52,483 nucleotides of DNA, taken from Myxococcota bacterium (lineage in GTDB: Bacteria > Myxococcota_A > Polyangia > Polyangiales > Sandaracinaceae). A program made the position numbers and the translations under genes. Shown here piece after piece: positions 2,114-33,398 of this stretch; the stretch's first letter is position 1; the number at the start of each line of letters is the position of its first letter. Below the pieces are notes generated by a model. It worked only from the letters and a program-made list of their open reading frames with translations, did no database searches and was not told where the DNA came from. The stretch covers positions 1 through 52,483 of the forward strand of contig JAYZQJ010000058.1 in the NCBI GenBank assembly GCA_036149055.1, written 5' to 3'.

Positions 2114-2488
2114 GCGTCCCCCGAAATCCTCAACGATTTCGTGGAATCATCCGGACTACCGGGGGGCTCTTGCCTTCCCCGCGGGGGCTCTCTATACAGT
2201 CGAGCCTCGCCCGTCCAGGCTGTGGAGTTCGGGTGGGGAAACCTGGGGATGGAACACGGGAGCACATGGGGACGACTTCTCCCACACTGTGTCCCCGATT
2301 TCGTCCACGGGCTGAGACATCGGATCGAGGTAAGGATTCCGGGCACTTGGCCGGATCCATCCCCAATCCACAGCACTTAAGAAGACGACGGAATTGAATT
2401 TAAAGATCCGAAAGGATCTTCTTCTGCGCGCTCGTGGATGTGGAAAGCGCGAGCCGCGCCCCAGCGGCGGGAAAGAGGCGAGGGACGG
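2114..2488. other. Putative chromosomal replication origin (oriC)
   Basis: Lower-GC intergenic region directly upstream of dnaN. It holds several degenerate DnaA boxes (TCGTCCACG 2291-2299, CAATCCACA 2364-2372, TGTGGAAAG 2439-2447). The 2364 box is followed by trio-like TAAGAAGACGAC and the AT-rich GAATTGAATTTAAAG. Confidence 0.65.
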
Positions 2489-3625
2489 ATGGAGCTCACG
2501 ATCAGCAAGCGGAACTTCCTGCGTGGCCTGGCACGTACCCACGGTGTCGCGGATCGGAAGAGCTCGATGCCGATCCTGTCGAACATCCTCCTGACCACCG
2601 AGAGCACCGGAACGCTCCGGCTCGCGGCGACCGACCTGTACCTCGGCGTCACCGCGACCGTGGAGGCGGAGGTGAAGACCGGGGGCTCGGTGGCGGTGGC
2701 GGCGAGGACGCTCTTCGACATCGTCAAGAACCTGCCCGAGGGCGACGTGAAGTGGACCGTCGGGGCGAACAACGCCGCAGAGATTCGCTGCGGAAAGGTC
2801 AAATACAAAATTCCCGGCATGCCCGGTGACGACTTCCCGCCCCTGCCGAGCCCCGGCCGGGCCGACTTCGTCGAGCTCGACGCCGATTCCGTCGGGGATC
2901 TCATCGGCAAGACCCAGTACTCGATGAGCACCGACGACACCCGACCGCACCTCGCGGGCGCGCTCTTCGAGGGCGACGGCAAGCTCATGCGCATGGTGAC
3001 CACCGACGGTCACCGCCTCAGCAAGGCCGAGCACAAGCTCGACGGCTCGATGCTCAGCTTCACGATGCTCGTGCCCAACAAGGGCATCGGCGAGCTGAAG
3101 CGCCTCATCGACGACGCCAAGTCCGAGCAGAAGAAGGGCGAGGGCGAAGGCGCCAGCGTCGGCGTGGCCACCACCGGCGGCAACGCGTTCTTCCGCGGCA
3201 AGGACGTCCTCCTGAGCGTGAAGCTGGCCGACGAGCAGTTCCCGCCCTACTCCAAGGTCATTCCACAGCAGCAGACCAAGCGCGTCATCTGCGCGCGCAC
3301 CAGCCTCATCGACTCGCTCCGCCGGATCAGCCTGGTCTCGAGCGACAAGAGCGGCGGGGTGCGGCTGACGCTGGAGCCCGGGACGCTGAAGATCGTGAGC
3401 GAGAACCCCGACGTCGGCGAAGGCAGCGAGGAGCTCGACGTCGACTACGCCGGCGACGCGCTCACCGTCGGCTTCAACGCCCGCTACATCCTCGACGTGC
3501 TCGGGGCCCTCGACGACGACGAGGTGGCGCTGGAGCTGAGCGGCGAGCTCGATCCCGGCGTGCTCAAGCCGGCGGGCGACGCGGCGGCGAGCTTCGTCGG
3601 CGTCGTGATGCCGATGCGCATCTGA
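2489..3625 (+). CDS. dnaN: DNA polymerase III subunit beta (sliding clamp)
   Basis: MPILSNILL, ATDL, TTDGHRL, FPPY, GFNARYILD and C-terminal VVMPMRI. ATG at 2489. Confidence 0.98.
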   Translation: MELTISKRNFLRGLARTHGVADRKSSMPILSNILLTTESTGTLRLAATDLYLGVTATVEAEVKTGGSVAVAARTLFDIVKNLPEGDVKWTVGANNAAEIRCGKVKYKIPGMPGDDFPPLPSPGRADFVELDADSVGDLIGKTQYSMSTDDTRPHLAGALFEGDGKLMRMVTTDGHRLSKAEHKLDGSMLSFTMLVPNKGIGELKRLIDDAKSEQKKGEGEGASVGVATTGGNAFFRGKDVLLSVKLADEQFPPYSKVIPQQQTKRVICARTSLIDSLRRISLVSSDKSGGVRLTLEPGTLKIVSENPDVGEGSEELDVDYAGDALTVGFNARYILDVLGALDDDEVALELSGELDPGVLKPAGDAAASFVGVVMPMRI

Positions 3626-9880: not shown

Positions 9881-9913
9881 GCAGCGCGCAGCGAAAATGA
9901 CTGCGCGCGCTGC
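9881..9913. repeat. Internally deleted second copy of the MITE-like element
   Basis: Repeats the first 30 bp of copy 1 and ends in GCGCGCTGC like the right terminus. Confidence 0.7.
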
Positions 9914-10003
9914 TGGCAGCTGCTGGCACACGCGCGGCATCGTCCCTAGGCTGGCGCCCGAGCGGCGGGGGGTGGCCCTGCCTCATGGAGAGAGACACGA
10001 GAG

Positions 10004-11641
10004 ATGGCCGTTCTTCCCCACCTTCGAGGCGTCACCGACACCGCTCCGCTCGGGGGCGACGTGAGCTGGCGTCAGGCGCTCGACGCCGCCGTGAACGCCT
10101 TCATGAAGCCGAACGACCGGCTCCGGACCACCGGGGAGCCCATCCCGGTGACCGAGGAGTCGCCGACCGCGGTGGTGATCGGCGCGGGGCTCGGGGGGCT
10201 CGCGGCGGCCGTGAGGCTCGGCGCGCGCGGCTACCGGGTGACCGTCGTCGACCGCCTCGAGCAGCCCGGCGGTCGGGCGCGCGTGTTCCGGGACGACGGC
10301 TTCGTCTTCGACGCCGGCCCGACCGTGATCACCGCGCCGTTCATGCTCGAGGAGCTCTGGCGCCTCGCGGGCAAGCGGCTCGAGGACGACGTCGAGCTCC
10401 GCGAGGTGTCGCCCTTCTACCGGATCCGGTTCCACGACGGCTCGCAGTTCGACTACACGGGCTCGGCCGAGGTCATGCGCAGCGAGATCGAGCGCTTCGC
10501 GCCGAGCGACCTCGCCGGCTACGACGAGTTCCTGAAGCACAGCGAGCGCATCTTCGAGATCGGCTTCGAGAAGCTCGCCCACGTGCCCTTCGACAGCGCG
10601 GTCGACATGGCGCGCATCGTCCCGGCGATGATGCGGCTCGAGAACTATCGCACCGTGCACGGGCTCGTCGCGAAGTACGTGAAGGACGAGCGCCTGCGCC
10701 AGGTCTTCAGCTTCCACCCGCTGCTCGTCGGCGGGAACCCCTACAGCTGCAGCTCCATCTACACGCTCATCGCCTACCTCGAGCGCAAGTGGAAGGTGTG
10801 GTTCGCGATGGGCGGCACCGGCGAGATCGTCAAGGGCCTCGTCGGACTCGTCGAGCACCTCGGCGGAGAGGTGAAGCTCGGAAAAGACGTGGCGGAGATC
10901 GTCGTCGAGGACGGCAAGGCCGAGGGCCTCCGCTTCCAGGACGGCTCCTCGATGCAGGCCGACGTCGTCGTCTCGAACGCGGACGCGGCCTGGACCTACC
11001 GGCACCTCGTCGCGCCGCAGCACCGCAAGCTCTGGCCGGACTGGCGCCTCGAGCGCAGCCGCTACTCGATGAGCCTCTTCGTCTGGTACTTCGGCACCAA
11101 GCGCCGCTACGAGGACGTGGCCCACCACACCATCCTGCTCGGGCCGCGCTACGAGGAGCTGCTCGACGACATCTTCGCCAAGAAGCACCTCGCCGACGAC
11201 TTCAGCCTCTACCTGCACCGGCCGACCGCGACCGACCCGTCGATGGCACCGGACGGCTGCGACGCCTTCTACGTCCTGTCGCCCGTGCCGCACCTCGACA
11301 GCGGGACCGACTGGTCGACGATGACCGAGCCCTACCGGAAGAAGATCGAGCGCTACCTGAGCGACACGATCATGCCGGGCCTCGAGTCCGAGGTCGTCAC
11401 CAGCCGGACGCTCACCCCGCAGGGCTTCCTCGACGATTACCTCTCGTTCAAGGGGGCCGCCTTCTCGCTCGAGCCGGTGCTCCAGCAGAGCGCCTACTTC
11501 CGGCCGCACAACCGGAGCGAGGACGTCGACGGGCTCTACCTCGTCGGGGCCGGGACCCACCCCGGGGCCGGCATGCCCGGCGTGCTCTCGAGCGCCCGCG
11601 TGCTCGACACCGTGGTCCCGGACGTCGTCCGCCGCCGGTGA
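10004..11641 (+). CDS. crtI: Phytoene desaturase
   Basis: VIGAGLGGLAAA, FDAGPTVIT, SFHPLLVGGNP, SLYLHRP and LYLVGAGTHPGAGMPGVLSSA. Confidence 0.96.
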   Translation: MAVLPHLRGVTDTAPLGGDVSWRQALDAAVNAFMKPNDRLRTTGEPIPVTEESPTAVVIGAGLGGLAAAVRLGARGYRVTVVDRLEQPGGRARVFRDDGFVFDAGPTVITAPFMLEELWRLAGKRLEDDVELREVSPFYRIRFHDGSQFDYTGSAEVMRSEIERFAPSDLAGYDEFLKHSERIFEIGFEKLAHVPFDSAVDMARIVPAMMRLENYRTVHGLVAKYVKDERLRQVFSFHPLLVGGNPYSCSSIYTLIAYLERKWKVWFAMGGTGEIVKGLVGLVEHLGGEVKLGKDVAEIVVEDGKAEGLRFQDGSSMQADVVVSNADAAWTYRHLVAPQHRKLWPDWRLERSRYSMSLFVWYFGTKRRYEDVAHHTILLGPRYEELLDDIFAKKHLADDFSLYLHRPTATDPSMAPDGCDAFYVLSPVPHLDSGTDWSTMTEPYRKKIERYLSDTIMPGLESEVVTSRTLTPQGFLDDYLSFKGAAFSLEPVLQQSAYFRPHNRSEDVDGLYLVGAGTHPGAGMPGVLSSARVLDTVVPDVVRRR

Positions 11642-12612
11642 TCGCGACCCAGCCCATCCCGGGACGGCCCGCTTCGGTGTACCGTCCCGCCGCCATGCGC
11701 CCGCCGCGACAGGTGCTCGACGAATGCCGCGCCATCCTCGGGCGGGGCAGCAAGAGCTTCGCGGCGGCCTCCCGCCTGCTCCCGGCGCGGCTGCGCGACC
11801 CGGTCGCCTGCTACTACGCCTTCTGCCGGGTGAGCGACGACGCGGTGGACGAGTCCGACGACCCCCGGCGCGCGCTCGACGGTCTCCGGGCGCGGGTGGA
11901 CCGCGTCGTGGACGGGCGCCCGGACGACCACCCCGCCGACCTCGGCCTCGCCTGGGTGATGGACGCGTTCGGGGTGCCGCGCGCGCCGATCGACGCCCTC
12001 CTCGAGGGCTACCTCTGGGACGTCGAGGAGCGCCGCTACGCCGACCTCTCCGGGGTTCGCGCCTACTCGGCGCGGGTCGCGGCCAGCGTCGGGGTGGTGA
12101 TGACCCTCTTGATGGGGCGCCGGGAGGACTACGTGCTGCACCGAGCGGCGGACCTCGGCGTGGCCATGCAGCTGACGAACATCGCGCGGGACGTGGGCGA
12201 GGACGCGCGGGCCGGCCGGCTCTACCTGCCGACCGAGTGGCTCGAGCGGGAGGGCGTGGACGTCGAGGCCTGGCTCGCCGCGCCGCGCTACGAGGACGGC
12301 GTCGGCGTCGCCGTCTGTCGCCTCCTGGACCACGCCGCGCACCTCTACCGCCGCGCCGACCTCGGGGTGCCGGAGCTCCCCGCGGACTGCCGGGTCGCCA
12401 TCGCCGGCGCCCGCCACATCTACAGCGACATCGGCCGCGTCATCCGCGGGCGCGGGCACGACAGCGTGACCGGGCGGGCCTTCACCTCCGGCCCCCGCAA
12501 GGTCATGCTCCTGGCCCGCGCCGCCTCCGAGCGCTGGCGTGACCCCGATCCTTTCGCGGTGCATCCTCCGCCGCTCCCCGAAATCACGTTTCTCGTCGAG
12601 GGCGTCTCTTGA
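11638..12612 (+). CDS. crtB: Phytoene synthase
   Basis: GSKSF, YAFCRVSDDAVD, RVAASVG and LGVAMQLTNIARDVGEDARAGRLYLP. GTG 11638 overlaps the crtI stop. Confidence 0.96.
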   Translation: MIATQPIPGRPASVYRPAAMRPPRQVLDECRAILGRGSKSFAAASRLLPARLRDPVACYYAFCRVSDDAVDESDDPRRALDGLRARVDRVVDGRPDDHPADLGLAWVMDAFGVPRAPIDALLEGYLWDVEERRYADLSGVRAYSARVAASVGVVMTLLMGRREDYVLHRAADLGVAMQLTNIARDVGEDARAGRLYLPTEWLEREGVDVEAWLAAPRYEDGVGVAVCRLLDHAAHLYRRADLGVPELPADCRVAIAGARHIYSDIGRVIRGRGHDSVTGRAFTSGPRKVMLLARAASERWRDPDPFAVHPPPLPEITFLVEGVS

Positions 12613-13337
12613 GTCAGTTACACGAACAACCCCTTGAGCGGCGCAAGCAGACCGTGCCGCGTGAGTTCGACGTCGTCGCCACGACGTACGACCTCCTCAC
12701 CGGGATGAACCCGGGCTACCACCGCAACCTCCGTCAGAGCGCCGAGCGGCTCTCCGTCCGGGGCGAGCGGCCGCGGCTCCTCGACCTCTGCTGCGGCACC
12801 GGCGCGAGCACCTCGGCGCTCCGCGCGACCTACCCGGACGCGGAGATCGTGGGCCTCGACGCCTCGGCTGGCATGCTCGCCCAGGCCCGCCGCAAGAAGG
12901 GCCTCGAGGGCGTGCGTTTCTTCGAGGGCGACGCGACCGATCCCGCGGCTTGCGGGGTCGAGGGGACCTTCGACGGCGTCCTGATGGCCTACGGCATCCG
13001 CAACCTCCCGGAGCCCGACCGCGGTCTCGAGAACGTGCGCGCGTTGCTCCGCCCGGGCGCGCGCGTGGTCTTCCACGAGTACTCGGTGCGCGACTCGCGG
13101 CGGGCGCGGCTGAAGTGGGACGCGGTCTGCTACGGCGTGATCCTGCCGGGCGGGATGATCACCGCGCGGGACAGCGACATCTACCGCTACCTCCACCGCA
13201 GCGTGCGGGACTTCGACGGGGTGCGGGCCTTCGAGGAGCGCCTGCGGCGCGCAGGCTACGTGGACGTGTGGACGGCGCCGATGGACGGCTGGCAGCGCGG
13301 GATCCTGCACTCGTTCGTCGGGCGGACGGCGTCGTGA
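12609..13337 (+). CDS. crtT: Class I SAM-dependent methyltransferase, Streptomyces CrtT-like
   Basis: YDLLTGMNPGY, LLDLCCGTGAST, FHEYSV, IYRYLHRSV and GWQRGILHSF. Sits between crtB and crtU; TTG start overlaps the crtB stop. Confidence 0.8.
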   Translation: MSQLHEQPLERRKQTVPREFDVVATTYDLLTGMNPGYHRNLRQSAERLSVRGERPRLLDLCCGTGASTSALRATYPDAEIVGLDASAGMLAQARRKKGLEGVRFFEGDATDPAACGVEGTFDGVLMAYGIRNLPEPDRGLENVRALLRPGARVVFHEYSVRDSRRARLKWDAVCYGVILPGGMITARDSDIYRYLHRSVRDFDGVRAFEERLRRAGYVDVWTAPMDGWQRGILHSFVGRTAS

Positions 13338-14851
13338 GCCTGCTCGAGAACCTGGGCTTCGGGCGGCGCGAGGTCCGCGGCGTCACCCGCGGCACCCGTG
13401 ATCGGGTCGAGGATCCGACGCGGGTGGTCGTGGTCGGCGGGGGCCTCGCCGGCGTCGCCGCGGCTTGCGTCCTCGCAGAGCGAGGCGTGAAAGTCACCCT
13501 GCTCGAGAAGGAGCGCTTCCTCGGCGGCCGCGTGGGCGCGTGGACCGAGAAGCTCCCCGACGGCACGCCGTACGAGATGGAGCGCGGCTTCCACGGCTTC
13601 TTCCGGCAGTACTACAACCTGCGAAACCTCTTGCGTCGCGTGGACCCGGACCTGTCGCGCCTGCGGCCGCTCGACGACTACCCGGTGCTCGGGCCGGACG
13701 GCTCGATGGAGTCGTTCGAGGGGCTGCCCAAGACCCCGCCCCTGAACCTCATGGCGCTGCTCCGGCGCACCCAGTTCGTGCGGCTCAAGGACCTGCGGGG
13801 GGTCGATCAGTCGAAGGCGCGGCTGATGCTGATGTTCGACCCGGCGCGCACCTACGCGGAGCACGACGAGACGACCGCGCGCGACTACCTCGACTCGCTC
13901 AAGTTCCCCGAGCGCGGCCGGCAGATGCTCTTCGACGTCTTCTCGCACTCGTTCTTCAACCCCGAGGCGGGGATGAGCGCGGCCGAGATGTTGATGATGT
14001 TCCACTTCTACTTCCTCGGGAACCCGGAGGGCCTCGTCTTCGACGTGCTCGACGAGCCGTTCAGCGACGCGCTCTGGAAGCCCTTCGAGCGCTACCTCTC
14101 GGGGCTCGACGTGGACGTGCGGCTCGGCGCCGAGGTGGAGTCGGTGGAGCAGACCGGCACCGCGTCCTGGCGGGTGCACGCGGACGGCGAGCACTTCGAC
14201 GGCGAGGGCCTCGTGCTCGCGGTCACGGTGCCGGCGCTCAAGTCGATCCTCGCCGCCTCGCCCTCGCTGCAGGTGGCCGAGGGGCTCGCGCAGTCGGTCG
14301 ACGGGCTCGACGTGACGCTCCCCTTCGCGGTGTGGCGCCTCTTCCTCGATCGCCCGGCGAACGAGGAGCGCCACCCCTTCGCCGGCACCGCGGGCATCGG
14401 CCTCATCGACAACATCTCGCTGTACGAGCGCTTCGAGGGCGAGAGCCGTCGCTGGTCGATGCGCACCGGCGGCTCGGTGGTCGAGCTCCACGCCTACGCC
14501 TGCCCGACGTCGGACGAGCGCGCGATCAAGGAGGAGCTGCTCGACGGGCTCCATCAGGTCTACCCCGAGCTCGCCGACGCCGACATCCTGCACGACACCT
14601 GGCTCCTGCGTCAGGACTGTCCGTCCTTCGGCCCCGGCAGCCACGGCGACCGGCCCCGGGTGGCCACGCCCTTCGGCAACGTCGTGCTCGCGGGCGACTT
14701 CGTGAAGATGCCGTTCCCGACCGCGCTGATGGAGCGCGCGGCCTCGAGCGGCATGCTGGCGGCCAACCACCTGCTCGACCGCTGGGACGTGCGGGGCGAG
14801 AGCCTCTTCAGCATCCCGCCCCGCGGCTTCATGTCTCGTCTCCCGCTGTAG
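13334..14851 (+). CDS. crtU: Carotenoid phi-ring synthase / isorenieratene synthase, actinobacterial type
   Basis: GGGLAGVAAA, RGFHGFFRQYYNLR, SAAEMLMMFHFYFLG-PEGLVFD, GGSVVELHAY and ALMERAA. GTG 13334 overlaps the crtT stop. Confidence 0.88.
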   Translation: MSLLENLGFGRREVRGVTRGTRDRVEDPTRVVVVGGGLAGVAAACVLAERGVKVTLLEKERFLGGRVGAWTEKLPDGTPYEMERGFHGFFRQYYNLRNLLRRVDPDLSRLRPLDDYPVLGPDGSMESFEGLPKTPPLNLMALLRRTQFVRLKDLRGVDQSKARLMLMFDPARTYAEHDETTARDYLDSLKFPERGRQMLFDVFSHSFFNPEAGMSAAEMLMMFHFYFLGNPEGLVFDVLDEPFSDALWKPFERYLSGLDVDVRLGAEVESVEQTGTASWRVHADGEHFDGEGLVLAVTVPALKSILAASPSLQVAEGLAQSVDGLDVTLPFAVWRLFLDRPANEERHPFAGTAGIGLIDNISLYERFEGESRRWSMRTGGSVVELHAYACPTSDERAIKEELLDGLHQVYPELADADILHDTWLLRQDCPSFGPGSHGDRPRVATPFGNVVLAGDFVKMPFPTALMERAASSGMLAANHLLDRWDVRGESLFSIPPRGFMSRLPL

Positions 14852-14920
14852 CCAGACGCCGAAGGCGGCCGGCGACAGCGGCCCGTGCCCGTGACGGCAG
14901 CGGCTCGGTGATCGACGAGC

Positions 14921-16084
14921 TCATCGCCCGGCGGGCTCGGGCTCGTAGGGCATCACCACGTTGTCGCGGATGTCCCAGGCGGCCGGCGGCGCGCCGCAGT
15001 AGAAGCAGCTCCACACGTCGGTCATCACCAGGTTGTTCCGGGCGTGCAGCGCGCCGATGGCGCCGTCCGGGTTGAAGAGGTCGGGCGCGACGTGGTGGAA
15101 GACGTTGTCGTCGAACCAGATGCGGTCGAGGGTGTCGCCGGCCATGCGGCCGAGCATCACGCCGGTCCCGACGAGCACGTTGTCGCGGGCGTAGGCCAGG
15201 TCGCTCAGGCCGTGGATCCGGTAGTTGTGCTTGTTGGTGTTCGCGATCCGGTTCTCGACGGTCGCGGTCCGGAGCACCGACACGAGGCGCACCGTGGACT
15301 CGGGCCCGGCCGAGTCGAAGTCGTTGCGGAAGAGGATGAGGTCCTCCGTCTGCATCGGGCCGGTGTCGCCGCACCACACCGAGTAGCGCTCCGCGATGGC
15401 CGTGCTGTCCATGATGGCGATGCGGCGCCCGCGGACGTCGAAGGCGATGTCGCCCGAGACCACGCGCAGACCCTCGAGGGAGATGTCCTCGGCCATCCAG
15501 TCGCTCCGGTAGGAGGGACCGCCGCCGTCCCACGACGCGGGGATGGGGAAGCGCACGCCGCTCCACTGGCCGCCGACCACGCGCACGCGGTGCACGCCGT
15601 GGGCGAAGCTGAGCTGGCCGAGCCGGCTGCTCGAGTCGAGCACGATCTCGACGTCGTTGGCGGTCACGGTCACGCTCGTGCCGCTCACGCCGTTCGCGAT
15701 CACGCGGGTGCCGGCCACGCCGACCTCACGCGTCAGGGAGGCGCCGTCGGTGACGGTCACCTCGCGGGTGATCGAAGGCGCCGTGGGCCAGCGCAGGCCG
15801 GACAGCTCGGCGGGGAGCGGTCCCAGGTCGCGGGGGCCCATCACCGGGGGCTCCTCGGTCGGGGGTTCTTCGACGGGGGGCGGGGGCTCCCCTTCGCCGA
15901 CCGGCTGGGCGACCGGCTGCCAGCCGCTCGCGCCGTCCGCCAGCGCGAGATCCTCGAGCTCTCCGTCCATCGTCGGGCCCGGGTCGAGGGTCCCCGGCTC
16001 CGATACGACCTGACCCACACAGCCGGTCAGCGCACACACGTATCCACACAGGAGCGCGAGGCTCCACACACACACCTTAGACAT
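14921..16084 (-). CDS. Hypothetical lipoprotein, possible parallel beta-helix domain
   Basis: Lipobox-like ALTGC, a Pro/Glu linker, then repeated short beta strands ending in N (FRNDF, VENRI, RDNVL, DDNVF, RNNLV, RDNVV). Confidence 0.6.
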   Translation of the reverse strand: MSKVCVWSLALLCGYVCALTGCVGQVVSEPGTLDPGPTMDGELEDLALADGASGWQPVAQPVGEGEPPPPVEEPPTEEPPVMGPRDLGPLPAELSGLRWPTAPSITREVTVTDGASLTREVGVAGTRVIANGVSGTSVTVTANDVEIVLDSSSRLGQLSFAHGVHRVRVVGGQWSGVRFPIPASWDGGGPSYRSDWMAEDISLEGLRVVSGDIAFDVRGRRIAIMDSTAIAERYSVWCGDTGPMQTEDLILFRNDFDSAGPESTVRLVSVLRTATVENRIANTNKHNYRIHGLSDLAYARDNVLVGTGVMLGRMAGDTLDRIWFDDNVFHHVAPDLFNPDGAIGALHARNNLVMTDVWSCFYCGAPPAAWDIRDNVVMPYEPEPAGR

Positions 16085-16251
16085 GGTCACCGTCACCGAA
16101 GGGTGTCGACTCGTTTTGACGCCGACGCGCCCCCCAGCGCTCGCGGCCCTTCGTCCTTTCCGGGCCTAAGAATGTCGCTGCGCAGAGTTCGTACAATGGG
16201 GGACAACCCCGACACTCGGCGGGGTTTCCCAGTGCCCGGACGTGTACGATT

Positions 16252-17247
16252 TCACTGGGTTACGACACGCAGGCGCTGCGGCGTGCGCTCGCCTTCGGAC
16301 CGGCGTCGGAGCGCGTAGGTGCGCTCCGCGTATGCCTTGTCCTCGACCCACAGCCGGGCGGCGCGGGCCTCGATCATCGGTCGCGCGAGACCGCTCAGCT
16401 TGCGAACGAACGGGAACAGCATCCGATCGCTCGTCGCGAGCGTCGCCTCGATCACCGCGCTGCGCCCCTCGTCGATCGGGGTCGCGTGCGTCTCCACCAC
16501 CGAGCCGACTCCGTCGCCGCGCAGGATGGTCATCACGATGGTGCGCGGGTCCGGGCAGTCGAAGCGCGCGTCGACCTCCATCGCGAGCGGGCCGAGCACC
16601 TTGTAGACGACGCGCACGGTGAGCTGCGTGACGTCCTCGTCGATCACGTGGAGGCGCAAGAAGGAGTGCGGGTGATAGTGCGCGCCGTGCCACGGATCGA
16701 GGCGGTTGGCGATGATGTCGCGGGGCTCGCACCGCGCCTCCATGCGGATCACGCCGCTCATGAACGAGCGCGGTCGCGCGGTCAGGATGGGCGCGTCGGT
16801 CGGCGCCTCGCCGGGCGCGAGCAGCTCGGGCATTCGCACCCAGGCGAGCACCCCGTCGTCGTGGGTCGTCAGCGGGGCCCAGTCGCCGCGCGCGCGGTCC
16901 CCGAGGGCGAGCCCGTGCCAGGGGCAGACCACGCGGCCGTCCCGGTCGACGTGCCCGTCGCAGAGCGAGGCGCCCATGTGCGGGCACGCCTCGGGCGCCA
17001 CCCGCAGGGCTCCGTCCGGCGTGCGCCAGGCCACCAGCGCGCGGCCGGCGACGGTGAAGCCGCGCGGGGCGTCGATCCGGTCGCTCGCGTCCAGCACCGC
17101 CCAGCCGCCGGAGGGCAGCGAGCGGGCGTGGGCGAGGCTCCGCTCGATCCGCGCCGGGTTGGCCTGCACCCAGTCGGGGCGGTCCGACACCGGATCGGCG
17201 TCGAGCTCCGAAGCGGGCGAGCGACCGAAGAGGACGAAGCGAGCCAT
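16252..17247 (-). CDS. crtV: Rieske-domain / DUF5914 protein, Streptomyces CrtV-like
   Basis: Rieske ligands CPH and CPWH; CEPRDIIANRLDPWHG, GVGSVVETHATP and LWVEDKAYAER. Lies near crtU. Confidence 0.8.
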   Translation of the reverse strand: MARFVLFGRSPASELDADPVSDRPDWVQANPARIERSLAHARSLPSGGWAVLDASDRIDAPRGFTVAGRALVAWRTPDGALRVAPEACPHMGASLCDGHVDRDGRVVCPWHGLALGDRARGDWAPLTTHDDGVLAWVRMPELLAPGEAPTDAPILTARPRSFMSGVIRMEARCEPRDIIANRLDPWHGAHYHPHSFLRLHVIDEDVTQLTVRVVYKVLGPLAMEVDARFDCPDPRTIVMTILRGDGVGSVVETHATPIDEGRSAVIEATLATSDRMLFPFVRKLSGLARPMIEARAARLWVEDKAYAERTYALRRRSEGERTPQRLRVVTQ

Positions 17248-17341
17248 GCGATCTCCTACCATTGCTGAGACGAGGCAGATAGCCCCGCCGCCGTTACCGA
17301 CACCCTGGTGTCATTCCGGCCCGAGGGCATACGCTCGTCGC

Positions 17342-17710
17342 ATGGACGACCCGCTCCTGGTCCGCGTGCGCGCCCTGATCGAGGCGCTCCCCGAGACGTC
17401 CGAGAAGCTCTCCCACGGCGCCCCGATGTTCTGGGGCGGCCGGAAGACCTTCGCGTGCTTCCACGCCGGCCAGTACGACGAGGGCCGACGAGGGGTCTGG
17501 ATCAAGGCCGACGACGGCGTCCAGGGCGAGCTCATCGAGAGCGACCCGGAGCGCTTCTACCGCCCGAAGTACATGGGCCCGAGCGGCTGGGTGGGGGTCA
17601 GGCTCGAGGGCGACGTCGACTGGGAGCAGGTCCGGGTGCTGCTCGAAGACGGCTGGCGCCTCGTCGTGACCAAGCGCGCCCTCCGCGCGCTCGAAGAGGC
17701 CCGGCGCTAG
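17342..17710 (+). CDS. MmcQ/YjbR-family DNA-binding protein
   Basis: LPETSEKLSHGAP, PERFYRPKYMGPSGWVG and DWEQVRVLLEDGWR. Confidence 0.85.
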   Translation: MDDPLLVRVRALIEALPETSEKLSHGAPMFWGGRKTFACFHAGQYDEGRRGVWIKADDGVQGELIESDPERFYRPKYMGPSGWVGVRLEGDVDWEQVRVLLEDGWRLVVTKRALRALEEARR

Positions 17711-17784
17711 AGAGGCCAGCGACGATCCACCCCGCGCCGCAGCCACAGGGCTCGGCTTCGGATCCGGGCTCGGTTTCGGTCTTC

Positions 17785-21899: not shown

Positions 21900-23147
21900 T
21901 CAACCGCTGAGCTGCTCGCGCACGGCTCGGCGATCGACCTTGCCGCTCGCCGCGACCGGGAGCGCGTCGGCGCGGGCCCAGCGGCGGGGGTGCTTGAAGC
22001 CGGCGAGGCGGGGCGCGAGGTGGGCGCGGAGGACCTCGGGCTCGACGTCGCCCACGATCATCGCCGCGACCCGCTGACCCCACCGCGGGTCGGGCACGCC
22101 GACGACGCAGGCGTCGCGCACCGCGGGGTGGCTGCGCAGGGCGGCCTCGACCTCGAGCGGGTCGACGTTCTCGCCGCCGCTCACGATGCGGTCGTCCGAG
22201 CGCCCGAGCACGTGCAGGCATCCGTCCGCGTCGAGCCGGCCGAGGTCGCCCGTGCGATACCATGTCCCGGGCGACGACCCCTCGGGCGTGGGGTCGTCGA
22301 GGAAGCCGTCGAACAGGGTCGGGCCGGAGACCTCGACGTGGTCATCCCGTATCCGTAGCGACACACCCGGGAGCGCTGGCCCCACCCCCTCGGGGCGCGG
22401 ATCCTCGAGCCGCTGGGTGGCGACCTGGGCGCAGGTCTCGCTCGTGCCGTAGGTCGGGAGCAGCGGCCAGCCGGCCTCTCGACCGCGGGCCAGGAGCTCG
22501 GCCGGGCAGGCGGCGCCGCCCAGGAGCGCGGCCCGGAGCCGGGGCGGCGGGGCGATCCCGCGCTCGAGCAGCCGATCGAGCATGGTCGGCACGAGCGAGA
22601 GCAGCGTGACCTCGAGCCGCGCGAGGTCGTCGCAGAAAGTATCGGGTGCGAACCCTTCCTGGCCGAGCGCGACCGCGCCGCGGGACCAGAGCGCTCGGGT
22701 GAGGATGGAGAGGCCGCCCACGTGGCCGAGGGGCATCGCGAGCAGCCAGCGATCGCCCGGCGCCCAGGGAAGCGCGCGCGCGTGGGCCTCGGCCGCGGCG
22801 CCGAGGGCGGCGGCGGAGAGGCAAACCCCCTTGGGCCGACCGGTCGATCCCGAGGTGAACACCACGGCCTGGGCGGTCGGGGCCGCTGCCTCGAGGCGGC
22901 GCCTCGCCGCCGCGCGCTCCGCCTCGGTCCAGCGCGCGTGCAGGAGCGCGAAGGGCACGCCGGCGTCGAGCAGCGACCAGATCCGGAGCACGTCGGCGCG
23001 GCGCGCGTGGGCGGTGAGCACCACCGGAGGCGCGCCGGGCGGCGGGAGCCGGGCGGCGACCTCGGCCCACGTGAGCGCGCCGTCGTCGTCGACGAGGGCG
23101 ATCCGCGTCGGCGCCTCCCGCGCCGCCTCGCGGACCGAGAAGCTCAC
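21900..23147 (-). CDS. menE: O-succinylbenzoate-CoA ligase
   Basis: FTSGSTGRPKG, TYGTSET, TGDLG and SGGENV. Lies in the men operon; GTG 23147 overlaps the menC stop. Confidence 0.88.
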   Translation of the reverse strand: MSFSVREAAREAPTRIALVDDDGALTWAEVAARLPPPGAPPVVLTAHARRADVLRIWSLLDAGVPFALLHARWTEAERAAARRRLEAAAPTAQAVVFTSGSTGRPKGVCLSAAALGAAAEAHARALPWAPGDRWLLAMPLGHVGGLSILTRALWSRGAVALGQEGFAPDTFCDDLARLEVTLLSLVPTMLDRLLERGIAPPPRLRAALLGGAACPAELLARGREAGWPLLPTYGTSETCAQVATQRLEDPRPEGVGPALPGVSLRIRDDHVEVSGPTLFDGFLDDPTPEGSSPGTWYRTGDLGRLDADGCLHVLGRSDDRIVSGGENVDPLEVEAALRSHPAVRDACVVGVPDPRWGQRVAAMIVGDVEPEVLRAHLAPRLAGFKHPRRWARADALPVAASGKVDRRAVREQLSG

Positions 23148-24187
23148 CAGGCCAGCTCGAGCGACATGCCGGGCAGACCGGGCGGCTCGATCCAGGCGAG
23201 GTCGATCCACGGCGCGGCGAGGCCGTCGCTCAGGGGCGCGAGGGCGGGGTGATCGCCGAGCCCGGGGGGCGGGCCGCCGAGCGCGAGCGCGAGATGAGCG
23301 GTGGCGGCCCGCGCGATCACGCCCTCCATCGTGTGGCTGAGGATCGCGCGCTTGCCCGCCTCGGTGGCCCGAGCGGCGATGGCCCGGCAGCGCTCCAGGC
23401 CGCCGAGCAGGGTGGGCTTGAGCACCACCGCGCCGATGTGGGGGCAGGCGAGGGCTCGCTCCAGGATGGCCTCGCCGTCCGGGCCGGACAGGGTCTCGTC
23501 GACCGCCAGCGGGAAGGGCACCTCCGAGAGCGCCTCCACGTGCTCGAGCGCGCACGGCTCCTCGAGCAGGTCGGGCTCGTGGGCGGCGAGGGCCTCGAGC
23601 CGCTTCGCGAGGGTGTCGGGCTCGATGCTGCCGTTGGCGTCGAGGCGCAGGTCGATGGGGCCGACCACCGCGCGCACGTCCCGGAGCAGGGCGTTCTCGC
23701 GGGCCGGCGGCTGCCAGCCGATCTTCATCTTGATCGCGAGCACCTCGTAGGCGGCCGCCTCGCGGGCCGACTGGAGGATGGCGCCCTCGTCGCTGCCCCA
23801 GAGCGCGCTCGCGATCGCGATCTCCTCGCTGGTCTCGGTCCACATCGCCCACATCGGGACCTCGTGCACCGAGGCGGCGAGCGAGGTGAGGGCGCTCTCC
23901 GCCGCGAAGCGGGCCGACGGGAGCGACGCGTCGATGCGCGAGACGCGGTCGGTGATCTCGTCGAGCTCGAGGAGCGGCTCCTCCGGCCACTCGAAGCGCG
24001 CGAGGGCCGCGCGGGCCTCGGAGGCGGACTCCTGGCTCATGCCCGGGAGCGGCGCGGCCTCGCCGAGCCCGACGTGTCCCTCACCGTCGTCGAGGATCAC
24101 GCGCACCGCGCTCCGGGAGTGCCAGCGACGCTTGGCGTTGCCGGTCTCCTCGATGCTCGTGTGCAGGGTCTGTAGCTCGGGCCGCAT
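23144..24187 (-). CDS. menC: O-succinylbenzoate synthase
   Basis: GEAAPLPG, KMK, LRLDANG, EEP, AVDE and VLKPTLLGG. Confidence 0.88.
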   Translation of the reverse strand: MRPELQTLHTSIEETGNAKRRWHSRSAVRVILDDGEGHVGLGEAAPLPGMSQESASEARAALARFEWPEEPLLELDEITDRVSRIDASLPSARFAAESALTSLAASVHEVPMWAMWTETSEEIAIASALWGSDEGAILQSAREAAAYEVLAIKMKIGWQPPARENALLRDVRAVVGPIDLRLDANGSIEPDTLAKRLEALAAHEPDLLEEPCALEHVEALSEVPFPLAVDETLSGPDGEAILERALACPHIGAVVLKPTLLGGLERCRAIAARATEAGKRAILSHTMEGVIARAATAHLALALGGPPPGLGDHPALAPLSDGLAAPWIDLAWIEPPGLPGMSLELAW

Positions 24188-24236
24188 GCGCTCCGCCGAA
24201 GCGTGAACCGTAGCAGGATGTCAGACCAATTTTCGG

Positions 24237-25103
24237 TCAGGCCGCGAGACCGGCCGCGAAGAGCACTCCGTATGCCAGCAAGAGCTGCGCGGTGCGGGCG
24301 AGCGTCTGGTTGAGCGGGCGGCCGGCGCGGGTGGCCACCTGCTGACAGAGGAGCGCGGCCCACGGCAGGGTGATCGCGGGCAGAAAGACCCAGGGCGACG
24401 CGAGCTCGAGCGCCCAGAGCAGGGTGGGCGTCGCGTAGCTGATCGCGATGAGCAGCATGTACTCGGCGATGGCGCCGCCCCGGCCGAAGCGGACCGCGAG
24501 GGTGCGCTTGCCGGCGACGACGTCGGTCTCGCGATCGCGCAGGTTGTTGACGACGAGGATGGCGGTCGCGAGCGCGCCGACCGGGACGCTCGCCCAGAGC
24601 GCGACCGGCGGCACCTCGCCGACCTGCACGAACGCGGTCCCGCACACGGCGACGAAGCCGAAGAAGACCATCACGAAGACGTCGCCGAGCCCGTGGTAGC
24701 CGAGCGGATAGGGCCCGCCGGTGTAGGCGATGCCGCTGAGCACCGAGGCGACGCCGATGGCGATCACCGGCCATCCAGCCACCCACACGAGGTAGGCGCC
24801 GCACAGGGTGGCGAGCCCGAAGGCGACGACCATCGCGACCCGCATCGCGCGCGCGCTGATCAGCCCCGAGGCCACCGCGCGGGTCGGGCCGAGGCGGTCT
24901 TCGGTGTCGGCGCCCTTCTCGGCGTCGAAGACGTCGTTGGCGAAGTTGGTTCCGATCTGGATCCAGAAGGCGCCGAGCAGCGCGGCGAGCGCGGGGCCCC
25001 AGGAGAGGCCGCCGGCGGCGTGCGCGCAGGCGGTCCCGACCGCGACCGGCACGAAGGCGGCGGTGAGGGTGGCGGGGCGAGCGGCGAGGATCCAGCGCTT
25101 CAT
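24237..25103 (-). CDS. menA: 1,4-dihydroxy-2-naphthoate polyprenyltransferase
   Basis: [33 protein letters not shown] and [20 protein letters not shown]. Confidence 0.95.
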
Positions 25104-25822
25104 GAGGTTTCCGTGAGGAGCGCGGCGAGGCGCTCCGGGCGCTCGAGCACGACGTTGTGCCCGGCGCCTTCGATCACCGTGAGCCGCCCGGACGGCAGGC
25201 GCGAGGCGAGCGCGCCCGAGAGCGCGCGGTGCTTGTCGTCTTCGGCCCCGACCACGAGGCGCACCGGCAGCCGGAGGGCGTCGGGCGCGACCGGCGGCAT
25301 CTCGGCGAGGCCGAGCACCTCGAGGGCGTGGGCCAGCCCGTCGGCGGCGTGCGCCTCTCGCTGGGCGCGCTGGGCCGCGAGGCGCTCCGCCGGCAGGCGC
25401 GCCTGGGAGGCCCAGAGCGGCAGCCGCTCCCACTCGGCGAGGAACGCCTCGAGGCCGTCCTCGCGGAGGAGCCGGATCCAGCGGGCGTCGGCCTCGCGCC
25501 GGGCGCGCCGGGCCTCGTCGTCGTCGAGCCCCGGGTGCGCGCCGATCAGGGTGGCGCGCGCGAACCGCTCCGGGCAGCGCTGGAGGAGGTGGTAGCCGAC
25601 GCGGCCGCCGAGCGAGTAGCCGACGAGGTGGGCCCCCTCGACCGCCTCCGCCTCGAGCAGCGCGGCCAGACGCTCGAGCTCGTCTCCCCAGGACGCGGGG
25701 CGCGCGGGGCTCGGGCCGTGGCCGGCGAGCCAGGGGCGGATCACCCGGGCGCCGCTGGGGAGCGCGACCGCGTCCCAGCTCGCGGGGCCGCCAGTGAAGC
25801 CGTGCAAGAGGACGTACGTCAC
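25100..25822 (-). CDS. menH: SHCHC synthase (alpha/beta hydrolase)
   Basis: [14 protein letters not shown] and AGHNV. Lies between menD and menA. Confidence 0.9.
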
Positions 25823-27530
25823 CGGAGCGCCTCCCGGAGCCGCGCCTCGAGGGCGCTGGCCGCGCTGGGCGCCACCTTCACGTGCACGAGGGTCACGCCC
25901 AACCGGGCGAGGGCCTCCCGCACCGCGGCCCGCGCGCTCTCGGCGTCCTCGGCGGCCGCGTAGCGCACCCCGTAGGCCTCGGCGGCGAGGTCGAAGCGGA
26001 CGCGCGGCGGGGTGGTGAAGAGGTCGAAGGCACCGTCGGGGAGGTCCCGCGAGGCGATCGGCAGCTGCTCGAAGATCCGGCCGCCGCCGTTGTCGATCAC
26101 GACGAGCGCGACCGGCGCCTTCACCTGCGCCGCGAGAGCCAACGAGGAGAGGTCGTGCGCCGCGGTCACGTCGCCGACGATCCAGACGCCGGGCCCGCCG
26201 TCGGCCTGCGCCGCGCCCGCGAGGCCCGCGATCCAGCCATCGATCCCGTTGACGCCGCGCTGGGTGATCACGCGGAGGTCGCCGCCGCCGGGCACGAAGC
26301 GGTCGGCGTGCCGGATGGGGAGGCTGTTGCCGAGCCCGAGGAGCGCGCCGGTTGGCAGGGCGCCGATCACCGCGCGCACGATCGCGCCCTCGGCGTCGGG
26401 GGTCAGCGCCGCCTCGACCGCGTCCCAGGCCCGGCGCTCGGCCGCGCGGGTGGCCCGGGCGAAGTCCGGGTCGGGCTCGCGGGCGCCGACGGAGGCGAGG
26501 CGGGTCACGATCTCGTCGAGCTCGCCCAGGAGCACCGCCTCCGCCGCGCCGCTCGGGTCGCGGTGGCGGGTGCCGCCGAGCACGAAGCGGCGGACCGGCG
26601 GCGCGGCGTCGAGCCAGCGCGCGTAGGCGGCGGAGGTGGGGGTGCCGCCGAGCTCGAGGATCACGTCGGGCGCCGCCTCGTGCGGGCCGCGGAGCCAGAG
26701 ATCGAAGGCGTCGGCGACGAGCAGCCCGCTCCGGTCGACGAAGCGGAGCTGGCTGCCGGCCTCGGCCCAGAGCGCGGCCCCGATCGTCTCGCAGACCGCG
26801 AGCACGGCGTCGCGCGGCGCGTCGAGCCCGAGGGGGCCGGCGACCATCGCGACCCGGCGGCTCGCCGACAGCGCCTCGCACACCGCGCCCAGCTCGGGCC
26901 GGACGAGCCGGCGTCGACCGATCGAGGTCGGCGGGAGCGAGGCGGCGAGGGCCTCGAGCGCGCGGCCCTCGTCGCTGGAGGCGGCGGTGGGCTCGAGCGG
27001 CTTGCGGGCCCGGGCGTTGATCTGCACCGGTCCGGGCAGGGGGCCGACCGCCGTCTCCACCGCGCGGGCGGCGGCCGAGCGCATCGCCCGGAGCGCGCGC
27101 GGGGTCGGGTCGGCGTCGCCGAGCTCCACGAAGGCGCGGGCGTGATCGCCGTAGAGCTGGCGCTGGTCGGTGGTCTGCGGCGCGCCGGTGCCGGTCAGCT
27201 CGGTCGGCCGGTCCGCGCTCAGCACCACCAGGGGCAGCGCCGCCTCCGACGCCTCGATGACCGCCGGGTAGTAGTGGGCCGGCGCGGTGCCGGAGGTGCA
27301 GAGCAGCAGCGGCGGGGCGCCGGTCACCCGGGCGAGGCCGAGCGCGTAGAACGAGGCGGCGCGCTCGTCGATCACCGGGTGCAGGGTGAGGTCGTCCCGC
27401 CGGGCGGCGGCGAGGAGGAAGGGGGTCGACCGGGAGCCCGGGCTCACCACGACGTCGCGGACGCCGGCCTGCGCGAGCGCGCCCAGCAGCGCGTCCGCCC
27501 AGACGGTGAGCAGGTTCTCCGGTCGATGGG

Positions 27531-27534
<4 letters not shown>
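25819..27534 (-). CDS. menD: SEPHCHC synthase
   Basis: [34 protein letters not shown] and [11 protein letters not shown] start at 27534. Confidence 0.95.
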
Positions 27535-28945
<1,411 letters not shown>

Positions 28946-28949
<4 letters not shown>

Positions 28950-29662
28950 TGCGCCTCCGCCGGGGTCCCCACGTAGAGGGTGCAGACGCCGAAGGTCAGC
29001 GGGGTGACCTCGAGCACCTCGAGCCCGGACTCGCGCATGAGCTCCGCGAACGCCTCCGGGGGCGGGAAGTCGGCGATCGACTTCTGCAGGTAGCGGTACT
29101 CCTTCTTGCCGCTGATGAGCCCGCCGATGGTGGGCACCACGTGATGCACGTGGAAGCGAGCGAGCGGCCCGAGCACGCCGGAGCGCGGCTCGCTGAGCTC
29201 GAGGATGGCCACGCGCCCGCCCGGCCGGGTGACCCGGGCCATCTCGGCGAGCGCCTTGCCGCGGTCGGGCACGTTCCGGATGCCGAACGCGATGGTCACG
29301 CCGTCGAAGCGGTCGTCGTCGAAGGGCAGCGCCTGCGCGTCGCCCTCGACGAGCTTCACGCGGTCGTCGATCTCCTCGCGCCGCGCCTTGTCGCGCCCGA
29401 TGGAGAGCATGTTGACGCTCGGATCGAGGCCGATGACCTGCGCGTCCGGGTGCGTCTGGGCGATGCGGAGGGCGAGGTCGGCGGTGCCGGTCGCGAGGTC
29501 GAGCACCCGGGGGCGCTCCTGCAGCTCGAGGGCGGCGACGGTGAGGCGTCGCCAGCGCTGGTCGATCCCGAGGCTGATGATGCGGTTGAGCAGGTCGTAG
29601 CGTTCGGCGATGGCGTCGAACATCTGGCCCGAGCCCTGCCTGACTTCGGTGGCGCTGGTCAT
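28946..29662 (-). CDS. menG: Demethylmenaquinone methyltransferase (UbiE/MenG)
   Basis: MFDAIAERYDLLNRIISLG, LDLATGTAD, FGIRNV and YRYLQKSI. ATG 29662 follows AAGGAG. Confidence 0.92.
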
Positions 29663-29673
29663 CGGGGGCTCCT

Positions 29674-30854: not shown

Positions 30855-32015
30855 TCAGCGCAGCCAGAGCCGATGCGACCGCAGCGTCTCGGCGGTCATC
30901 GCCCGGACCGGCATCGCGGCCATCACCTCGAGGCTGTGGCTCGGGCTCGTGCGGTCGCTGAGGAAACGCGCGAGCAGCTCGGGGCGCACCCGCTCGAAGA
31001 GCCGGACCAACGTGGCCGGCATCCGCTCGGTGTATCGCGATAGGTACGAGAGGAAGACCCGGTCCTGGAACAGCTGGAACGACGTGCGCGGCGGCGGCGG
31101 CTCCGGCAGCGTATCGACGTCGAGGCGCTTCGCCATCTCGGCCGAGAAGGTCTGGATCGCCTGAAAGGCGTATCCGGTCGAGGGCTTGGCCATGCCGCCG
31201 CCGAGCCCGATGCGGTACACGCGATCCGAGATCCGGACCGGCATCGGCTCGGCGCTCATCGGGATCACGCCCCGCTCACGTCCGGTGACGCGCCAGTCCC
31301 GGAGCCCCAGCTCCTGCCGGATGTATCGCACCAGCGCCTGGCGATACACCGCCTCGTCGGGCACCTCCGTGCCGAACCAGGTCGCCTCCACGAGAGCCCG
31401 GCGCGGGCCGTAGGGGAGCACGTAGAAGAAGTGCACCCCGTGCTCCTGGGGCACCGCGAAGTCCATCAGGGTGGCGACGGAGTCGTCGAACACGTCGCGG
31501 TCGGCCTCGATCTGCCAGCCTTCGAAGTGCTGGAGGAAGGCGACGTCCCGCCCGGGCACGCTGGCCACCCGCCGCCGCGGCGGCCGGCTGTCGAAGACCA
31601 CCGGCGCGCGGAGCGGTCCGTCCGGGGTCTCGACGCTGGCCCCGTCCCGGGTCTCGGTCACCTCGCCGGCCTCGACGCCGAGCCGGAGCTCGACCCCCGG
31701 CGTGCGCCTCAGCCTGGCGATCACCCGGTCGTAGAAGGCGTCCGACGGAAGGTGCTCGTAGCGCAGCCCGCGGGAGGCGCGCTCGACCCAGGGGCCCTGA
31801 TGCCGGACCCGCCAGCGATCCCACCGATGGGTGACCAGGTCCTCGAACGGGTGATCGACCACGTTCCAGAAACACCAGGTCCGGTCCCGGCCGTAGTCGC
31901 TGCGGGGATCGACGAGGACGAGGCGGCGGCCCTCGAGCCCACGCTCCACGAGGTGCCACGCGAGGCTCAGCCCGGCGCAGCCAGCGCCGACGATGGCGAC
32001 GTCGGCGTCGCTCAG
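30855..32015 (-). CDS. crtY: Lycopene beta-cyclase (CrtY/CrtL family)
   Basis: DVAIVGAGCAGLSLA, DRTWCFW, LQHFEGW, TLMDF, ERGVIPM and AKPSTGY. Start uncertain: CTG 32015 or GTG 32060. Confidence 0.88.
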   Translation of the reverse strand: MSDADVAIVGAGCAGLSLAWHLVERGLEGRRLVLVDPRSDYGRDRTWCFWNVVDHPFEDLVTHRWDRWRVRHQGPWVERASRGLRYEHLPSDAFYDRVIARLRRTPGVELRLGVEAGEVTETRDGASVETPDGPLRAPVVFDSRPPRRRVASVPGRDVAFLQHFEGWQIEADRDVFDDSVATLMDFAVPQEHGVHFFYVLPYGPRRALVEATWFGTEVPDEAVYRQALVRYIRQELGLRDWRVTGRERGVIPMSAEPMPVRISDRVYRIGLGGGMAKPSTGYAFQAIQTFSAEMAKRLDVDTLPEPPPPRTSFQLFQDRVFLSYLSRYTERMPATLVRLFERVRPELLARFLSDRTSPSHSLEVMAAMPVRAMTAETLRSHRLWLR

Positions 32016-33316: not shown

Positions 33317-33398
33317 GCCCAGACCCTGCCACATAGGATCCACCCCACGAAATCCGCAAGGGATCGCGCGAGGGTCGCCGAGGTGTCAGGCTCGGCCC

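Follow-up and report, generated by a model that had tools for sequence, protein, structure and literature searches.

A variant of the Streptomyces-type aryl-carotenoid gene module in a marine myxobacterium and its predicted products

Which carotenoid would a myxobacterium make if it carried crtT, crtU and crtV, genes that the original prediction had taken as the mark of actinobacterial isorenieratene clusters? The question is raised by a crt locus on contig JAYZQJ010000058.1 of the Myxococcota assembly GCA_036149055.1. The window analyzed here is that entire contig (52,483 nucleotides), which belongs to a 9.89-Mb genome (73% GC, 96% complete). We conclude that the locus is a genuine and conserved variant of the aryl-carotenoid module known from Streptomyces. 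As judged from its genes and from characterized relatives, it would lead, with a probability of roughly 0.55, to phi-ring carotenoids ending in 3-hydroxy- or 3-methoxy-isorenieratene.

Layout and mosaic ancestry of the crt locus

All six predicted pathway genes were found intact and in place. On the forward strand, crtI (10004..11641), crtB (11638..12612), crtT (12609..13337) and crtU (13334..14851) are linked by 4-nt overlaps (GTGA between crtI and crtB, TTGA between crtB and crtT, and GTGA between crtT and crtU). The start codon is GTG in crtB and crtU and TTG in crtT. On the reverse strand, crtV (16252..17262) is convergent with crtU, with 1400 bp between the crtV end and the crtU stop, and the cyclase gene crtY (30855..32015) lies 13.6 kb beyond crtV. 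This confirmed the originally described overlaps, the 1.4-kb spacing and the distant cyclase. The GC content at third codon positions (GC3) of the crt genes was 0.93 to 0.97, similar to that of housekeeping genes. Moreover, in the independent seawater DNA run X6, three contigs together hold the cluster with approximately 99% identity (27, 2 and 12 differences over 9901-13641, 13652-14451 and 14453-17778, respectively); therefore, the cluster is not an assembly artefact.

CrtI matches the purple-bacterial type of phytoene desaturase (TIGR02734, 616 bits; cut-off 238), and its N-terminus is extended by approximately 50 amino acids, an extension common to family relatives. CrtB is a phytoene synthase, also of purple-bacterial type (PF00494, SQS_PSY), with the Rhodobacter-type CrtB model NF045921 as its best NCBIfam match. 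CrtT is an S-adenosylmethionine methyltransferase of the UbiE fold (PF01209). CrtU (505 amino acids; Amino_oxidase) is a predicted phi-ring synthase combining beta-ring desaturation and a methyl shift. CrtV consists of a Rieske domain (PF00355) and DUF5914 (PF19299), and CrtY is a lycopene beta-cyclase (PF05834, Lycopene_cycl; 215 bits). No crtE was found in the cluster, and two candidate short-chain prenyl-diphosphate synthases are encoded on contigs C137 and C227. A "crtF" on contig C1 was not counted, being a partial, sub-cut-off match to the BchU/CrtF family with no crt context.

The two halves of the pathway differ in their nearest relatives, CrtI and CrtB being of purple-bacterial type and CrtT, CrtU, CrtV and CrtY of Streptomyces type. 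CrtI was 64% identical to the Thiodictyon and 52% to the Roseobacter protein, and 33 to 34% to those of Streptomyces; the corresponding values for CrtB were 52%, 48% and 33%. In quick trees of CrtI (69 rows) and CrtB (56 rows), both proteins grouped with Thiodictyon and Roseobacter, apart from all actinobacterial rows. When the locus was compared to the S. anulatus cluster, identity was 48% for CrtT, 46% for CrtU, 47% for CrtV and 37% for CrtY versus 33% for CrtI and CrtB. CrtU was 46 to 47% identical to Streptomyces CrtU, including the plasmid copy. These comparisons indicate a real mosaic, in which a Streptomyces-type aryl module stands on a purple-bacterial backbone. The order crtI-crtB-crtT-crtU was present in 14 of 24 non-actinobacterial loci, and crtV in 14 of 24; neither crtT nor crtV was found in any of the 56 actinobacterial loci of the same set. 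Furthermore, within Myxococcota the crtT-crtU-crtV module is combined with three or more kinds of crtI/crtB backbone, including a Pantoea-type one.

A careful CrtU tree (LG+G4, rooted on Rieske-bearing CrtU) was built from 67 of the 103 gathered rows. The 13334-14851 protein fell within CrtU, in a mostly myxobacterial clade that also holds Lernaella, Latescibacterota, Thermoanaerobaculales and one gammaproteobacterial row. With support of 99/96, this clade was joined to that of Streptomyces and other crtTV-linked actinobacteria, which bears out the assignment as CrtU. A mixture-model quick tree (45 rows) gave the same sister placement (Shimodaira-Hasegawa-like approximate likelihood-ratio support, 95). 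The window CrtU clade stood apart from the chi-ring CrtU of Thiodictyon and from a Calothrix Rieske-type protein. A second actinobacterial clade fell outside the Streptomyces and myxobacterial grouping, and the myxobacterial clade lay between the two actinobacterial ones in both the LG+G4 and the mixture-model trees. This second clade comprises Micromonosporaceae, Streptosporangiaceae and others (L020-L079, L162, L167) without crtT or crtV, and two sampled genomes carry CrtU of both actinobacterial clades.

Monophyly of actinobacterial CrtU was not rejected (approximately unbiased test, p-AU 0.189); the CrtT tree had no usable root and the CrtV tree had none. Judged by these trees, an actinobacterial donor is allowed, with the direction ambiguous. 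The direction from Myxococcota to Actinomycetota was tried and discarded as an explanation, since the basal position of Polyangiaceae in the quick LG tree was gone under the mixture model and was likely a long-branch pull. A recent transfer was ruled out by the host-like GC3 and by the identities of CrtT, CrtU and CrtV to two family metagenome-assembled genomes (MAGs), which at 71 to 78% approach those of the housekeeping protein DnaN (78 to 82%). Thus, the module is old in the family, and the sequence comparisons place the crtT-crtU-crtV-crtY module as an old one in Polyangiales that has its ancestry in common with the Streptomyces module. Of the graft originally proposed, the purple-bacterial type of CrtI and CrtB held up in trees and identities, whereas the transfer from Actinomycetota did not, the module being old, apparently inherited within the family and of ambiguous donor.

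The distant crtY was counted with the module because it directly adjoins crtV in several Polyangiales loci (L012, L017, L019, L103, L109, L192 and L195). CrtY was 37% identical to the Streptomyces enzymes versus 25 to 27% for proteobacterial CrtY, and in a tree of 29 rows it grouped with Streptomyces CrtY (96/99) and not with proteobacterial CrtY. Near its N-terminus there is no ATG, GTG or TTG; the sole start nearby is a CTG, which overlaps the stop (CTGA) of a lone SctN/FliI-type ATPase gene (32012-33343, reverse strand). The same-genus genome likewise has the CTG, and in two other genomes of the family an ATG (L206) or a GTG (L207) stands in roughly its place. This ATPase gene was near crtY in all four family loci checked.

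Host and distribution of the module

As a host marker we used dnaN (2438..3625, forward strand; TIGR00663). The window DnaN was 82% and 78% identical to those of two Sandaracinaceae MAGs, 68% to that of a Polyangiaceae MAG (partial), 44% to that of Cystobacter and 26% to that of Actinoplanes, and the nearest named CrtU relatives are from Sandaracinaceae. We infer that the host is a Sandaracinaceae myxobacterium of the order Polyangiales and, as expected originally, not an actinobacterium. Its genome holds four matches to heme-copper oxidase subunit I, in agreement with the predicted aerobic life, and at 96% completeness no pufLM or reaction-centre genes (PF00124) were found in it. Part of the cluster was present in 20 of the 24 sequencing runs listed. 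The runs with at least 79% of the cluster words (possible source run excluded) came from seven studies: five on seawater or marine samples, one on an invertebrate gut and one on a coded organism. We conclude that the host is marine and non-phototrophic. A cultured member of Sandaracinaceae is yellow-orange from carotenoids (PMC5010890), and the CrtU of this cultured pigmented species, which belongs to the window CrtU clade (P0052; Sandaracinus amylolyticus DSM 53668), is 58% identical to that of the window.

CrtU was detected in 29 of 30 family genomes and in 111 of 251 genomes of the order sample; for CrtV the corresponding counts were 27 and 68. These tallies include the unpublished genome G113, and related genomes are not independent. 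A strong lycopene cyclase match was present in 29 of 31 family genomes. The 111 genomes were split by hand into those with close CrtU (at least 44% identity) and those with distant CrtU only. CrtV was present in 66 of the 70 genomes with close CrtU and in none of the 41 others, and two genomes had CrtV without CrtU. In the Myxococcota sample, 51 of 301 genomes encode CrtU and 15 encode CrtV. Among 201 genomes of Actinomycetota, CrtU was found in 10, and in 8 of them crtT and crtV adjoin. CrtV thus has about the same frequency in the Myxococcota sample as the crtT-crtU-crtV set has in Actinomycetota. Of 251 genomes in the Pseudomonadota sample, the centre genome alone had CrtV. Based on these tallies, the module is a trait of the family Sandaracinaceae and not an actinobacterial marker; the view of crtT, crtU and crtV as such a marker was contradicted by the CrtV counts of order and phylum, set against the 8 actinobacterial genomes.

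A link of the module to phototrophy was rejected. In addition to the lack of pufLM in the host, reaction centres were present in 4 of 30 family genomes and 11 of 251 genomes of the order sample, and 6 of the 66 genomes of the order with CrtU and CrtV were phototrophs. In approximately two-thirds of the genomes of the family, CrtU of the close clade is present twice (e.g., L095/L096, L099/L100 and L101/L102), and the window genome carries one; in L096 and L102 the second copy is near crtY.

CrtV, CrtT and the predicted end product

CrtV has the Rieske ligands C93/H95/C113/H116, the motif N186-x2-D189-x2-H192-x4-H197 and the C-terminal ligand D308. The Rieske, N-x2-D-x2-H-x4-H and C-terminal Asp ligands were invariant in 22 of 22 aligned sequences, and 45 of 46 homologues, among them all 10 from actinobacteria, have the motifs. 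The structural model (predicted local distance difference test score, 88) shows two domains, Rieske and Bet v1-like, with KshA and dicamba monooxygenase (DdmC) as the best Foldseek matches (E of approximately 1e-13; template modeling score, 0.55 to 0.57). Motifs and modelled fold together indicate that CrtV is a complete Rieske non-heme iron oxygenase. Indeed, Becerril et al. (2018) called CrtV a Rieske oxygenase (PMC5993118); for DUF5914, no paper was found in the open literature. The idea that CrtV is the split-off Rieske domain of a sulfur-bacterial CrtU was rejected: profile scores between CrtV Rieske domains and 112 CrtU inserts were 17 to 25 bits, unrelated genome proteins reach 21 to 22 bits, and CrtV is missing from all 41 genomes with distant, Rieske-poor CrtU only.

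The S. argillaceus cluster yields hydroxylated and methylated isorenieratenes, mainly the dimethylated dihydroxy form, according to PMC5993118. By analogy, CrtV is likely an aryl 3-hydroxylase, and CrtT likely O-methylates the aryl hydroxyls. Natural CrtT-CrtU fusions exist, one of them in Actinopolymorpha pittospori (3 cluster members). CrtU-CrtV fusions have four representatives, and the three looked up were single-member clusters that may be read-through artefacts. Both kinds of fusion would support functional coupling. Furthermore, the conserved CrtV active site and the tracking of the CrtU clade by CrtV suggest a selected activity on the CrtU product.

Together, the complete oxygenase, the S. 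argillaceus products and the natural fusions favor an oxygenated end product. In the proposed route, geranylgeranyl diphosphate (GGPP) would come from an unlinked prenyl synthase, and CrtB would convert it to phytoene. CrtI would produce lycopene, presumably in four steps, as deduced from Thiodictyon CrtI, the annotated protein nearest to it. CrtY would form beta-carotene, a compound known to be made by a Streptomyces crtY cluster. CrtU would then desaturate the rings and move a methyl group from C1 to C2, yielding beta-isorenieratene and isorenieratene, the aryl rings of which may be hydroxylated by CrtV with O2 and O-methylated by CrtT to 3,3'-dimethoxy-isorenieratene. An unlinked crtC-crtD pair may channel some of the flux into monocyclic aryl carotenoids whose open end is hydroxylated. 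Every product in this route is a prediction, drawn from observed genes, motifs, clade and distribution and from the fold of the CrtV model. The pigments likely protect the cell against light and oxidative stress. With respect to the isorenieratene originally predicted, an aryl carotenoid is likely, but the bare hydrocarbon is called into question by the dimethylated dihydroxy product of a cluster with crtT and crtV.

Several points weigh against this route. CrtV and CrtT were only proposed for the hydroxylation and methylation steps in PMC5993118, and in the literature we found no characterized member of the window CrtU clade, which is only 46 to 47% identical to Streptomyces CrtU. In S. griseus, crtT and crtV are dispensable (as cited in PMC5993118). 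The pathway might thus end at isorenieratene (C40H48), as in S. griseus, with CrtT and CrtV playing a minor part or using another substrate. Most Streptomyces pathways end at this compound (PMC5993118), and the placement of CrtU beside Streptomyces CrtU would fit such an end. We nevertheless consider it unlikely, given the full CrtV active site in 45 of 46 homologues, the co-occurrence of CrtV with close CrtU in 66 of 70 genomes and the main product of S. argillaceus.

The remaining adverse points concern expression and ring type. The CTG start of crtY is non-standard. In RNA run X15, all 30 bins were covered, but contigs cover genes and flanks alike, and one flat-depth contig (12538-16978) spans the convergent genes; DNA carry-over is possible, so the run does not establish transcription and was not used as evidence. 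Streptomyces Mg1, with a full seven-gene cluster including crtU, makes mainly beta-carotene (PMC13505331), and such clusters are often silent (PMC5993118). Moreover, phi or chi ring type does not follow CrtU similarity closely and is unpredictable from CrtU sequence alone, and Thiodictyon CrtU makes chi rings (PMC10604819). The cluster could therefore be mostly silent, stall at beta-carotene, or make chi rings (renieratene or renierapurpurin), which we rate as a little less likely than an end at isorenieratene. Use of the pathway is suggested by the 27 to 29 of 30 genomes of the family that retain the genes in intact frames and conserved order, and the nearest characterized CrtU clade makes phi rings.

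Least likely of the three alternatives is a mainly monocyclic pigment, an aryl analogue of the myxobacton skeleton with one chlorobactene-type end made by CrtY and CrtU and an open end hydrated and desaturated by CrtC and CrtD: it would fit a crtC-crtD pair on contig C71 (1436-5090; L084, L202; 386 bits with the CrtD model, short of the 580 required; 42 bits for CrtC) and the action of CrtC and CrtD on gamma-carotene in M. xanthus (PMC8156234), but crtD is present in 9 of 31 family genomes (6 close orthologues) while nearly all of them encode CrtU and CrtV, the Pantoea queries matched neither a CrtX-like glycosyltransferase nor a CrtZ, and CrtY groups with Streptomyces-type enzymes. The crtC-crtD pair is divergent from a CarH-like gene of divergent sequence with helix-turn-helix and B12-binding domains and the motifs W-x9-EH and E-x-H-x2-G. 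By its gene content, this locus is a probable light-switched second carotenoid branch. CarH operator repeats (tandem T-x2-ACA) were not found in the window or on C71.

Known systems, biomarker meaning and neighboring genes

The same crtY, crtT, crtU and crtV families make up the Streptomyces crtEIBV/crtYTU clusters (S. griseus, S. coelicolor, the S. argillaceus crta cluster and the S. anulatus plasmid copy L093). The plasmid copy resembles the window in its crtT-crtU overlap and convergent crtV. In both systems CrtU has no internal Rieske domain (no PF00355) and belongs to sister clades, and CrtV has the same motifs. Unlike the Streptomyces clusters, the window has purple-type crtI and crtB, no crtE in the cluster and crtY displaced by 13.6 kb; it thus departs from the seven-gene actinobacterial organization with its crtE-crtI-crtB backbone. 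The unlinked crtC-crtD pair and CarH-like gene are extra, the host is a marine Gram-negative bacterium, and its products are those predicted here.

The CrtU of green sulfur bacteria and the CrtU/CruE of Thiodictyon and cyanobacteria belong to the same flavoprotein family and share the ring-aromatizing chemistry. However, they have an internal Rieske domain and form a separate clade of phototrophs, whereas the window CrtU lacks the insert and comes from a non-phototroph. Over the common halves, Rieske-inserted CrtU/CruE proteins are 34 to 40% identical to window CrtU, and their insert has no specific kinship with the CrtV Rieske domain. The carB pathway of Myxococcus xanthus also uses CrtB, CrtI, CrtC, CrtD and a CarH-type B12 photoreceptor. 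It differs in having two CrtI and CrtYc/Yd and in ending at a monocyclic keto-glycoside ester (myxobacton ester), and a crtU-crtT-crtV module is not described in the portion of PMC8156234 available to us.

The novelty of the original prediction is weakened by earlier work: Li et al. (2023) predicted isorenieratene synthesis at the KEGG level (CrtU/CruE together with a cyclase) for several families of phototrophic Myxococcota, Sandaracinaceae among them (PMC10576062), and a similar prediction exists for Binatota (PMC8262859). In the available portions of both papers, crtT/crtV, clade placement and end product go unmentioned, and the window genome differs in having no pufLM. An Enhygromyxa cyclase-CrtU fusion is listed in PMC9304148, Ward and Shih described CrtU in non-phototrophs (PMC9342728), and some myxobacterial proteins are already annotated in databases as "isorenieratene synthase" or "phi-carotenoid synthase." In the open literature, subscription papers aside, we found no aryl carotenoid measured in a myxobacterium and no crtT or crtV described there. 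What is new is that the module occurs in nearly every genome of a family that is mostly non-phototrophic and has marine members, and that its end product is likely oxygenated.

Isorenieratane serves as a biomarker of photic-zone euxinia, cyanobacteria and actinomycetes being already known aerobic sources; Cui et al. (2020) dismissed Streptomyces as a marine source, as soil organisms with usually silent clusters (PMC7395447). With the gene set of the window, an oxygen-respiring marine bacterium becomes a possible further source of pigments that geologists read as signs of sulfidic water. The isorenieratene of green sulfur bacteria is 13C-enriched. The biomarker claim of the original prediction stays plausible in a weaker form: aerobic sources were known, a hydroxylated or methoxylated end product is likely, rings with O-substituents would presumably not give isorenieratane directly, and some flux may be lost to the crtC-crtD branch. 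Should the pathway end in methoxylated rings, the concern shrinks, and the cluster becomes a route to 3,3'-dihydroxy- and dimethoxy-isorenieratene and a test bed for CrtV and CrtT. A bolder scenario, which we regard as doubtful, is that Sandaracinaceae produce phi-ring carotenoids constitutively, and free isorenieratene in amounts that would make them an overlooked source of isorenieratane and aryl isoprenoids in oxic seawater, and that the crtT-crtU-crtV-crtY module may have arisen in Myxococcota and not in Actinomycetota. If true, the argument used for Streptomyces, that non-phototrophic producers are soil bound and silent, would fall.

The gap between crtU and crtV holds an unrelated 391-amino-acid gene (14921..16096, reverse strand) outside the pathway. 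Its product is a predicted secreted protein or lipoprotein with a right-handed beta-helix-like fold and no Pfam match; its protein-atlas neighbors are beta-helix proteins, and two paralogues lie on contig C147. A match to the Shiga toxin A model (20 bits; cut-off 730) was discarded as noise. Among the loci of relatives compared, the gene lies between crtU and crtV only in the same-genus genome, and the content of this gap varies between relatives. Menaquinone genes lie between crtV and crtY (23144-30735, reverse strand), encoding enolase-like, UbiA prenyltransferase, hydrolase, thiamine pyrophosphate (TPP) enzyme, chorismate-binding, UbiE/MenG and polyprenyl synthase proteins. A cytochrome P450 gene (47171-48568, reverse strand) adjoins a TetR regulator gene, 30 kb from the crt genes.

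Myxococcota hold at least three CrtU types. Some members (L172-L175; P0145, P0167) have Rieske-inserted CrtU that groups with that of green and purple sulfur bacteria. CrtYcd-CrtU fusions are many (P0259, P0260, P0271, P0275, P0276, P0283 and others), and those placed in the tree fall in a distant CrtU clade. Single CrtU fusions to UbiA-like (P0262), fatty-acid-hydroxylase (P0299) and glycosyltransferase (P0293) domains were also found.

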